The position numbers were made by a program, and so were the translations under genes. Shown one piece after another: positions 38,271 through 41,200 of a stretch of 64,000 nucleotides of DNA (positions are counted from its first letter, which is position 1; each line of letters starts with the position of its first letter). The stretch comes from Schmidtea nova (lineage: Eukaryota): NCBI GenBank assembly GCA_044892505.1, contig CM097883.1, positions 197,160,001 through 197,224,000 on the forward strand. Direction: 5' to 3'. A model generated the notes under the pieces. It saw nothing but the letters and a program-made list of their open reading frames with translations, ran no database searches and was not told the origin of the DNA.

Positions 38271-41200
38271 TTACACTAACGTCTCCTGAGGGCCGAAATA
38301 TAGGTCTCGCATTCCCCCATATAATTCATTTGTAGTTCGATATATATCTGCTTCTATTATTGACGGATTTATCGTTGGTGGTAGTCCTTGCATCCACATT
38401 CCATTGAATTCTGATCCATTGCATATCTCATATTCGTCTTCCGTCTTTACTTCTTCTAAACTGATTCCATATTCGAACTTCTCGATGCTTGGCCATTGTC
38501 TCTTTCTTTTCGGTTTTCTTTTACATCTTCCAGTGATTTTTGCATGTTGTGTGAGAATCAAAACCAATATTGCGCCTATTATTCCGGCAGTTATCCATAT
38601 CATTTTGATTGCTATTTTTGATTCTTCTACTGCTGCTGATATTGTTGTTGGAGATTCCGTTGTTGTTTGTACGATTTTGATCGGTCTCCCTCCTTGAATT
38701 ATTCGTTCGGCTTCTTCCTCCGATATATATTTATTATAAACTGTTGGTTTTGTTGTTAGTATTTGATCTTCTGTACTGAATTTTCTGGTATCGTCTACTC
38801 GTCTAGGTAATTTTGAAATAAATTGACATGTTGGATGTTCATTTAATTTTTTGTAGAGGCATACCCGGTATTTAGTTCCTCGTTCCCATCCGGCTACATA
38901 ATATTCCTCTTCTTCAATAAATGATTTTTCTTCTTTATTGCTCACACTTTTACACTTTTCTTGTTGTAGTTTTACTTCATAGATGCATATTCTAGCAATA
39001 AGATGTCCTTGTACGTTTTTGACTTTTATAATATCATTTTGAAAGAATTTTTCGGTTTCTTTTTGTATTCGGTTTGGAGTGATTGATATTTCTATTTCTT
39101 TTATGTAACCTTTGACTATCTTTGGTTTTTCTGTTACAGTTATTGTTGCTCTTGGGAGTCTTATTGCTTTTTCAACCGGTTCTCTCCCGCTTTCTGTGCT
39201 TGTTATTATTTGTTCTGTCGTGGTGTGTTCTTGACAAATTGGGACTAACGTTCTCCATATACATATTAGATACGTTGTTTTTGATTCTAATTCTTTGATT
39301 ATCATTTGTTCCTTTCCCTTTGCTGACTGTTGATAACATTTGCTAGGGTTGTCGAGCCCACTATTCATATCGACCTTTCTAGAACAAACCTTTTTGATTA
39401 CTTCGTCATGGTTGTTTATTAGTATTATTTCCGTGGATTTCGTTTCTACTATCAGAGGGTAATAAGTAGTTGTTCCACTGGTTGTTGTAGTTGTCGTTAT
39501 GATTTCCTTGGTGAGTTTTTCTAGACATAGTTTTTGTGTCCATATTCTTCTTATGCATATCGTGTAGCTTGTTCCTGGCTTCAATCCTGGTATTCTGAAT
39601 TTTCCATTTTGGCCTGTCATTTGAAATTTACACGATAATTGTCTGTCCTTATTTTGCATATGGATGGTTTTTATCCAACAAATTTGAGTTATAGGCTCTC
39701 TCACATTGTTTGTTACCATCATTTCTTTTTCTTTCACTTCTATTGATGTTTTGTTCTGGATCGTCATCATAGCCTTTTTATCTTGCTCTTCTTCTTCGTT
39801 TTCTTCTTCATTTTCATCTATTGGGGTTTTTGTGACACTTTGTATTTTTTCTGGCTTGTTCCTCTCGTTTCCCATTTTCGTAATCATTTCTTTAGCTGCA
39901 CAGATTGCTCTTATTTGATTTGTTCGATATACACATATTATATATGTTGTTCCTGATTCGAGTTTTTCGATCTTTTGTTCTTCTCCTATTGCTAATGCTG
40001 TTCTTATGCATTTCTGGTGATCACTGACTCCATTTTTCCGTATTGCAACTGTACATATTTTAATTATTAGCTCTCCTTTGATATTCGTTATCCATATATT
40101 TTCTGTATCTGTGATTATTCTCGCCTCTGCTCTTCTCTGATCAAATATGTAATCGATTGCTTTCACCCAATTCAACATTGTCAATAATATTGTCATAATT
40201 ATTGTATTTTTACCTGGATTTTTAAGTAGACATACCGTTCGATTTTCATAGTTGGAATTTTCTTGTCCATTCTTGTTCTCTTTATTTTCGTCTTCGTTTT
40301 CGTTGTTTTTATTCTCCCATTTGTCACTGTTTCCGTGATTTCCGTGATCACTGTTATTATCATTTAGCTGCTGTTCATTGCTATCGTTGTCTTTATCGTC
40401 TGATTTGCCGTCATCGGGATCGTTCAGATCACCCTCGGTTTCTTTTGAAATGTCGTCCTCGACATTTATATCTTTGATTATTTCCCAATATAATTTGATA
40501 ATTCTTTGTTCATCTAATTTTATTTCACCCATTTTGCATTTCAATGTTCCAGCATCGTCGTGAAGATAACTCTTGTCTTTATTTTTGATCTTTTTTCGCC
40601 ATTCTTTAACCCATTCAAGTAGTTTTTCTCTCTTTGTTTTTATTTTCATTTCTTCGTTTGGCTTGTTTGTGAATCTGAAGTCTGATCTTTTTAGTAGTGC
40701 TTTTGCTACTCTAGGTAATGTCCAATTTTCAATCAAAGCTCGCTCCATTAACACGTTTTTATCATTTTTGAACTCGTTGTTCACATTCATCAGTCCTTCT
40801 CCAGAGAGTGGATCTTTCCATTTTATCATTTTTGTAGCTACTATTTCGTCTTTTCTCATTACTGCTCTTAATAATGGCTTTGGATTTAAACTCAGGATTT
40901 TAATGTCCTCTTGACTTGCTTTTGATAAAAGGTACTTGGCTATTGTATAATAAGGTGATCTGTAAACGTATGATAGTACAGTTTCATTGTTGTTATCTCT
41001 TTCTTTGATACTTGACCCTGTTCTTAGTAACTCCTCGATTAAGTCTTTGGACCCTCCTTCTTCTACTGCTAGCATTAATGGTGTTTGTCCTTTCCAATTT
41101 TTTATATTCGAGTGTTGTCCGCATCTTTTCATGAGTTTAATTATTTCCATAGCTCTTTTTCCTTCTCCCTTCCTCAAGGCTACATTTAGTGGTGTTTCCT

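Follow-up and report, generated by a model that had tools for sequence, protein, structure and literature searches.

A candidate second surface protein, with cysteine-rich FN3-like repeats and a PDZ-type end, after the integrase of a Burro-type giant retroelement of Schmidtea nova

The polyprotein of a Burro-type giant LTR retroelement of Schmidtea nova carries, beyond its integrase and ankyrin repeats, a module with a signal-like stretch, four FN3-like repeats, a predicted transmembrane (TM) helix and a tail with a PDZ-type end. This module is a real, selected and apparently undescribed part of a known giant element. Its role is, in our judgement, evenly balanced between the following reading and all others: this C-terminal part of the polyprotein, predicted to be cut off at its signal, would be a PDZ-anchored second surface protein that aids contact-mediated spread beside the envelope protein (Env), a function that we infer. 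We analysed a window of 64,000 nucleotides (the whole stretch at positions 197,160,001 to 197,224,000 of contig CM097883.1, assembly GCA_044892505.1), in which the module ends an ORF of 1312 aa (38271-42209, minus strand) located between two LTRs. The features of this copy are, in window coordinates:

47613..51243 (-): 5' LTR, 3631 bp, TG...CA ends, flanked by the target duplication ATAA
47581..47612 (-): 10-nt spacer and primer-binding-site-like word, the same sequence following the LTR in other copies
44267..44614 (-): remnant of an IAP-type RING finger in the leader (Pfam PF13920, E 1.2e-12)
42399..42480 (-): internal-deletion junction; removed are gag, MATH, env, protease (PR), reverse transcriptase (RT) and the start of the integrase
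41580..42209 (-): C-terminal half of the integrase with its SH3-like end, aa 1-210; partial, not a whole integrase
40650..41234 (-): ankyrin repeats, aa about 326-520 (Pfam PF12796, E 3.8e-14)
40155..40208 (-): internal signal-like stretch, aa 668-685, ending V-K-A; signal-peptidase site predicted, from hydropathy only
39876..40136 (-): Cys4 FN3-like repeat 1, aa 692-778, by alignment
39504..39773 (-): Cys4 FN3 repeat 2, aa 813-902, by Pfam, predicted fold and structure searches
39210..39467 (-): Cys4 FN3-like repeat 3, aa 915-1000, by alignment
38802..39065 (-): Cys4 FN3-like repeat 4, aa 1049-1136, by alignment
38550..38609 (-): predicted TM helix, aa 1201-1220, hydropathy 2.44 at 1201-1219
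38499-38528 (-): basic stretch RCKRKPKRKR, beginning 8 residues past the TM helix
38274..38549 (-): 92-aa tail with five Tyr; YGGM at 38310-38321, terminal ETLV at 38274-38285
33506..37145 (-): 3' LTR, 3640 bp, TG...CA ends, then ATAA

The first-pass annotation had read positions 38274..40210 as a complete adhesion or signalling receptor carried by an element. Carriage by a mobile element is borne out by the flanking LTRs, the copy family and the polyprotein context. The receptor is not complete: the stretch, no stand-alone gene, forms the C-terminal end of a polyprotein of a retroelement in which an Env is already present. The two LTRs are 99.5-99.8% identical in two aligned blocks, and the ATAA on both sides is a 4-bp target duplication. 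Matched LTRs and target duplication imply that the window copy moved recently, and presumably by means of a helper. The element is internally deleted, with intact LTRs and everything from gag to mid-integrase gone; lacking gag, env and pol, it would need a full-length helper. The sequence that follows the 5' LTR, which we take to contain a primer-binding site of the tRNA-Pro type, is identical in three of the four other copies shown (L021, L031 and L048) and differs by one base in L025. The leader also holds an array of units of about 20 bp (GAGACTTTGAGAGT.., 42980-43350), the length of which differs among copies.

The family is large. A DNA search of the genome (1.25 Gb, AT-rich) returned 668 candidates, of which the 40 scored were all full-length at 98-100% identity, and a protein search with repeat 2 returned 1344 candidates. 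Among 150 scored copies, 41 lie in open frames of at least 4990 aa and 40 in frames of 1340-1370 aa; 15 of the 20 upstream stretches sampled were like the window, and five carried the long polyprotein. The long form encodes, in a single frame and in this order, Gag with CCHC knuckles, MATH, a fusion glycoprotein, protease, RT, RNase H, integrase, ankyrins and the FN3 module. The fusion glycoprotein (Env; Pfam PF24664, E 7.8e-69, at 1128-1446) and the protease (1656-1742) share this frame. Placed by its architecture against the published description, the window element belongs to a Burro-type giant LTR family of high copy number whose polyprotein has about 5000 aa (PMC6431247).

Burro1-4 and GYPSM1 are giant gypsy-like LTR elements of planarians, and their mid-polyprotein Env and ankyrins have already been published (PMC6431247). 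They share with the window family the multi-kb LTRs, one ORF of about 5000 aa, the Gag CCHC knuckles, MATH, an Env in frame between Gag and protease, the PR-RT-RNase H-integrase order, the ankyrins and over a thousand candidate copies. However, FN3, a second signal, a C-terminal TM and a PDZ motif, all of which are predicted in the window family, are missing from that description, and its text has no occurrence of "fibronectin", "FN3" or "signal peptide" (PMC6431247). We found no description of a post-integrase FN3-TM-PDZ module in the literature searched, nor anything on it in the available text of PMC8532177, PMC11410931, PMC13238120 and PMC9094657; the extended data of Grohme 2018 or Repbase may show part of it. 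The module fills in a previously unannotated part of the Burro polyprotein. A protein search with the integrase-ankyrin region returned 11 unrelated ankyrin proteins and no Burro sequence.

The deleted copies share one history. The same junction is present in all 19 deleted copies and in none of 21 full-length ones. Past it (42272-42398), deleted and full-length copies differ by 25% over the first 63 bases and by 11.5% over the next 63; from 42272 on, the difference does not exceed that among the copies themselves. An old deletion whose 3' part was renewed by recombination with helpers would yield such a gradient. Recombination with helpers can thus explain the open frame of the deleted copies, which is therefore no proof that they express the protein. 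Selection on the deleted copies as the cause of this open frame was considered and rejected, since the gradient at the junction fits recombination. The remnant at 42272-42398 contains stops and lacks the first catalytic Asp, and its T-rich end (..TTTCCAG near 42320) resembles a splice acceptor, a putative one. No splice-type joint was found among those listed in the contigs of four runs of one study, which covered all 30 bins of 37150-44900 and which cannot reveal expression.

The sequence features attributed to the module at first pass were largely confirmed. All 16 cysteines are exactly in place, four per repeat (719/734/759/770, 844/860/885/895, 942/958/983/992 and 1075/1086/1117/1128). The LxxxTxYxxC strand that they were said to surround was found in repeats 1 to 3 (LESGTTYIIC, LKPGTSYTIC, LESKTTYLIC) and not in repeat 4, which has W for L (WERGTKYRVC). 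The TM helix, RCKRKPKRKR, the five tail tyrosines (1247, 1260, 1290, 1297 in YGGM, and 1304) and the terminus QETLV all stand at the positions claimed. Membrane insertion is likewise predicted, with type I topology, from hydropathy only. Pfam matched the window ORF in its ankyrins, weakly in the integrase, and with fn3 on repeat 2 only. The word RQICM lies at aa 228-232, between integrase and ankyrins. The four repeats are alike beyond chance (local-alignment z of 4.8-14.8 for six pairs against shuffles).

The whole ectodomain could not be folded alone (aa 686-1312, single sequence, pLDDT 31, unusable) and it has no sequence relatives, so we gathered repeats from sister families. These families were reached through Env, MATH and BIR searches, and one degenerate repeat of family D was excluded. 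In the resulting eight repeats from three families, the four Cys and a Tyr are invariant, at pairwise identities of only 13-27%. Predicted on this alignment, repeat 2 forms seven strands (pLDDT 83.8, pTM 0.72); it is the one repeat of the four that was folded, on eight sequences, and repeats 1, 3 and 4 are FN3-like by alignment only. Its best structural match is the FNIII domain of sDscam (Z 10.5, rmsd 2.1, 80 residues aligned), and the top 50 matches are FN3-type chains by title except that at rank 7. A second structure search (Foldseek) also matched FN3 chains, with a best E of 8.5e-4. The neighbours include FN3 domains of adhesion proteins and of cytokine receptors, tied within 1 Z, and no FN3 family stands out. 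By sequence, all seven matches of the repeat profile in the PDB (E up to 10) are fibronectin or Tie2, with a best E of 0.0025. Pfam fn3 (PF00041) gives repeat 2 24.8 bits (E 2.5e-5) against a gathering cut-off of 25, and taken repeat by repeat it matches one of the eight by itself. A viral fold library gave no match at E 0.001 (best E 0.007). The FN3 fold proposed at first pass is hence predicted for repeat 2 (pLDDT about 84, Z 10.5) and extended to the others by alignment. The cysteines, on strands 3, 4, 6 and 7 of the model, would suit two hairpin disulfides per repeat. Single-pass FN3 proteins (sDscam FNIII, fibronectin, receptor phosphatases, class II cytokine receptors, and FNDC9 as a lead from the Atlas) share the seven-strand sandwich, whereas they are at most about 20% identical to the window repeats, which have four Cys each, are intronless and are fused to a retroelement.

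In sequence searches, the ectodomain had no relatives at E 0.001 among 7994 scored candidates, and none in 1.84 billion representatives; the repeat profile had none among 6043 longer candidates. We screened for a host donor with a Pfam fn3 search of the genome (92 matches of 150 scored) and profiled 75 loci covering most of these matches. No Cys4 repeat was found in the 75 host FN3 loci (best E 0.015), a weak test of the recent host donor implied by the first-pass annotation, as an equally divergent donor would escape it and element copies crowd the results of protein searches in this genome. The FN3 fold plausibly derives from an animal host, but long ago, with its repeats having multiplied and diverged within the elements.

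The repeats are under purifying selection. Variants common to at least three of 40 copies have a pN/pS of 0.18 (31 silent, 23 changing), against 0.51 for singletons (15 silent, 31 changing); the contrast is significant (Fisher p 0.016, and 0.0096 without repeat 2). These ratios are simple site counts without transition correction, on copies picked for closeness or intact frames. Shared variants in the ankyrins give a similar value (0.16), and the linkers are relaxed, on small counts. The tail has two silent and three changing shared variants, too few to show selection inside the family. Of 39 other copies, 33 retain the full set of 16 Cys, 39 retain YGGM and 38 retain ETLV (T-L-V-stop), which says little given that these copies are 97-100% identical. 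A family that already has a fusogen retains, under selection, a second predicted surface glycoprotein beyond Pol. As far as is known, LTR elements that turned infectious captured one envelope gene, and we found no second glycoprotein of this kind in any LTR element in the papers searched.

More distant comparisons come from sister families. Three of the four examined (B, C and D) have the order signal-ectodomain-TM-tail after the integrase. The integrase half of family D is 80% identical to that of the window family (family A), and is followed by Cys4 repeats, two signal-like stretches, a TM and a tail. This tail ends VIVV or VVIV in nine of nine copies, at most a class II motif. Families B and C are 49% and 48% identical to the window family in the integrase half, and 91% to each other. 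In both, a signal-like stretch directly follows the integrase and precedes an ectodomain of 330 aa, beyond which come a TM and a short tail; this tail ends ETFV in two of three (B) and three of three (C) copies, the exception stopping six residues early. Their ectodomain shows no tblastn likeness to the window ectodomain and no match to the Cys4 profile; its FN3 label comes from an Atlas match to FN3 proteins (0.85), a lead only. Family E has one Cys4 repeat and no TM. Given the ends of family D and the lack of a TM in family E, neither the TM nor ETxV is universal.

The sister families hold further ORFs of note. Accessory ORFs end ETDV in family D (three of three: L123, L126, L129) and ETFV in family E (four of four: L131, L134, L137, L139); they are coiled-coil-like, 400-527 aa long, with ends of the form DEGF..EETDV or EETFV, which would be a second use of class I PDZ motifs. 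Two small ORFs of family E (L131:3855-5676 and L134:3884-4708; 275 and 297 aa) have a signal-like start, a coiled-coil-like body and a TM, and are further predicted surface proteins. The main ORF of family E (L142, L151-L162; about 1050 aa) has a protease-like part, ankyrins and one Cys4 repeat, no TM, and is followed by MATH and BIR-RING ORFs; by its content this element looks non-autonomous.

Several animal viruses use E-T-x-V-type ends against Dlg-type polarity scaffolds. The composition chance of ETxV at one terminus is about 0.0003-0.0004, and with the sister-family and accessory ends E-T-x-V terminates proteins in three distinct ORF lineages. In a predicted complex of the tail with a host Dlg-like PDZ domain, the score was 0.52, against 0.02 for the best of three controls, with a run agreement of at least 74% and a partner pLDDT of at least 49. 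In a benchmark that holds no peptides, 51 of 78 solved pairs and 2 of 108 mismatched ones attained the mark for this score, and passes at or below 0.60 comprise only 5 of the 78 solved pairs, yet all four passing mismatches. The score may be due to resemblance to solved PDZ-peptide complexes. The class I PDZ ligand seen at first pass is thus backed mainly by its recurrence in distant sister families, to which the complex prediction adds weak support. The ETLV terminus likely binds host PDZ scaffolds, as predicted for a tail that we place on the cytosolic side; class I motifs have the form S/T-x-hydrophobic at the C-terminus (available text of PMC4810129).

The role that we favour would proceed as follows. 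The alternation of signal, TM, signal and TM would make Env and the FN3 block luminal in the ER, with Gag, the PR-RT-integrase-ankyrin part and the tail remaining cytosolic. Just three segments exceed the hydropathy threshold within a stretch of 3333 aa from one full-length copy: one ahead of Env, one where Env ends and one ahead of the FN3 block, the TM of the module lying further on. Signal peptidase would cut at the internal signal and free a single-pass type I glycoprotein of about 627 aa, in which the paired Cys would form two disulfides per FN3 repeat. Fused to the structural polyprotein in one frame, the module would be made one-to-one with Gag and Env. ETLV would then bind host PDZ scaffolds of the Dlg type and fix the FN3 protein at cell junctions, and at such contacts it could help the separate fusion protein (Env) to pass the element between cells.

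The cell-contact role is favoured by analogy with HTLV-1, whose Env carries a class I motif that binds DLG1 and aids cell-cell fusion (available text of PMC4810129). HTLV-1 Env and Tax and adenovirus E4ORF1 share the S/T-x-hydrophobic C-terminus, and E4ORF1 ends TLV like the window tail (same text); in the window family, where Env is mid-polyprotein, the motif and its predicted binding belong to a separate FN3 protein. GAG-ENV-POL errantiviruses with a gB-type Env, described in Platyhelminthes, Nematoda and Bryozoa, likewise have Env ahead of Pol, and their fusion glycoprotein lies between a signal and a TM; the text searched, which has no "fibronectin", "ankyrin" or "accessory", shows no second membrane protein beyond the integrase (PMC13524379). 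A more specific proposal, tentative in our view, is that Burro elements are retrovirus-like agents whose single polyprotein yields a surface system of two proteins: ahead of Pol a gB-type fusogen, and after Pol a PDZ-anchored FN3 protein for attachment or adhesion that evolves fast and would make virological-synapse-like contacts and spread the element among planarian stem cells. With over a thousand candidate copies in a probably stem-cell-based animal, passage of giant retroelements from one somatic cell to another, or an effect on junctions, becomes testable.

Alternatively, the module could be cargo that manipulates the host, acting at the surface in adhesion or as a decoy to alter the junctions, polarity or survival of the carrier cell and taking no part in entry or spread, which we find doubtful but worth serious attention. 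It would then be akin to the MATH, BIR, BCL2-like and ankyrin cargo of the element, and Burro cargo consists mostly of apoptosis and ubiquitin regulators (PMC6431247). In our data, BIR or BCL2-like cargo had no Pfam match in the family-A stretches scanned; there is a weak Bcl-2 match in B and C, and a BIR-RING ORF in E. The soluble coiled-coil accessory ORFs also end E-T-x-V, as do HTLV-1 Tax and adenovirus E4ORF1 in their fashion (available text of PMC4810129), and adhesion and cytokine-receptor domains stand level among the fold neighbours. Yet the module is in frame with the structural polyprotein, whereas MATH and BIR cargo are often separate ORFs, and its slot is retained across families though the ectodomains have diverged beyond detection.

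We consider it unlikely that the stretch at 668-685 is an uncleaved anchor and that the main task of the module is to hold the Pol-ankyrin part at ER membranes for assembly, with the FN3 block as a luminal spacer. The stretch is internal, short and less hydrophobic than the TM (1.54 over 19 residues, about aa 669-688), and its cleavage is a prediction. However, the pre-ectodomain stretch of families A to D ends with Ala at -1 and a small residue two positions before it, at -3, in keeping with the signal-peptidase rule; families B, C and D have likewise signal-like stretches by hydropathy. A spacer, moreover, would need neither Cys4 repeats under purifying selection nor a PDZ-type end.

The first-pass annotation had linked the repeats to FLRT, LRFN and LRRN proteins and YGGM to PI3K. 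That the module is a captured FLRT/LRRN-like signalling receptor recruiting PI3K through YGGM is quite improbable. A Cys pair on the last two strands is a trait of FLRT/LRRN-type FN3 and is present in the window repeats; the top Atlas match is FNDC9 (0.87, a lead only); and YxxM is the docking motif of PI3K p85. But FLRT, LRFN and LRRN proteins have a leucine-rich-repeat ectodomain (plus Ig in LRFN and LRRN) ahead of one FN3, while here Pfam matched no LRR or Ig domain up to E 1 and the FN3 repeats start directly after the signal; hence, by domain content, this is not an FLRT, LRFN or LRRN protein. The sequence searches gave no related protein, and no FLRT/LRRN chain is among the structure matches listed. 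Conservation of the tail motifs among copies, which the annotation had expected, holds for YGGM and ETLV in the close copies and breaks down for YxxM, present in none of the three sister tails; the chance of at least one YxxM among five Tyr is 0.15. We therefore rejected YGGM as a PI3K site.

A functionless passenger, open merely because the family is young, would fit the near-identity of the copies and the lack of TM and tail in family E, but is the least probable reading, being largely refuted by the silent excess among shared variants and opposed by the Cys4 pattern kept at such low repeat identity and by the common topology of B, C and D.

The window holds other mobile sequences. An ordinary Ty3/gypsy element lies at 7538-12067 on the minus strand, with identical direct repeats of 107 bp, gag at 10767-11984, pol down to 7630 and a near-identical copy in L125; a second, broken gypsy element (12630-15900) consists of RT-RNase H pieces. 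A 304-aa ORF at 31231-32145 weakly matches DUF4371 (E 3.9e-6) and is probably a DNA-transposon remnant. Pieces at 56018-59614 and 62094-64000, in either orientation, are 68-96% like the LTRs of the giant element, and may be LTRs of sister families or older copies.
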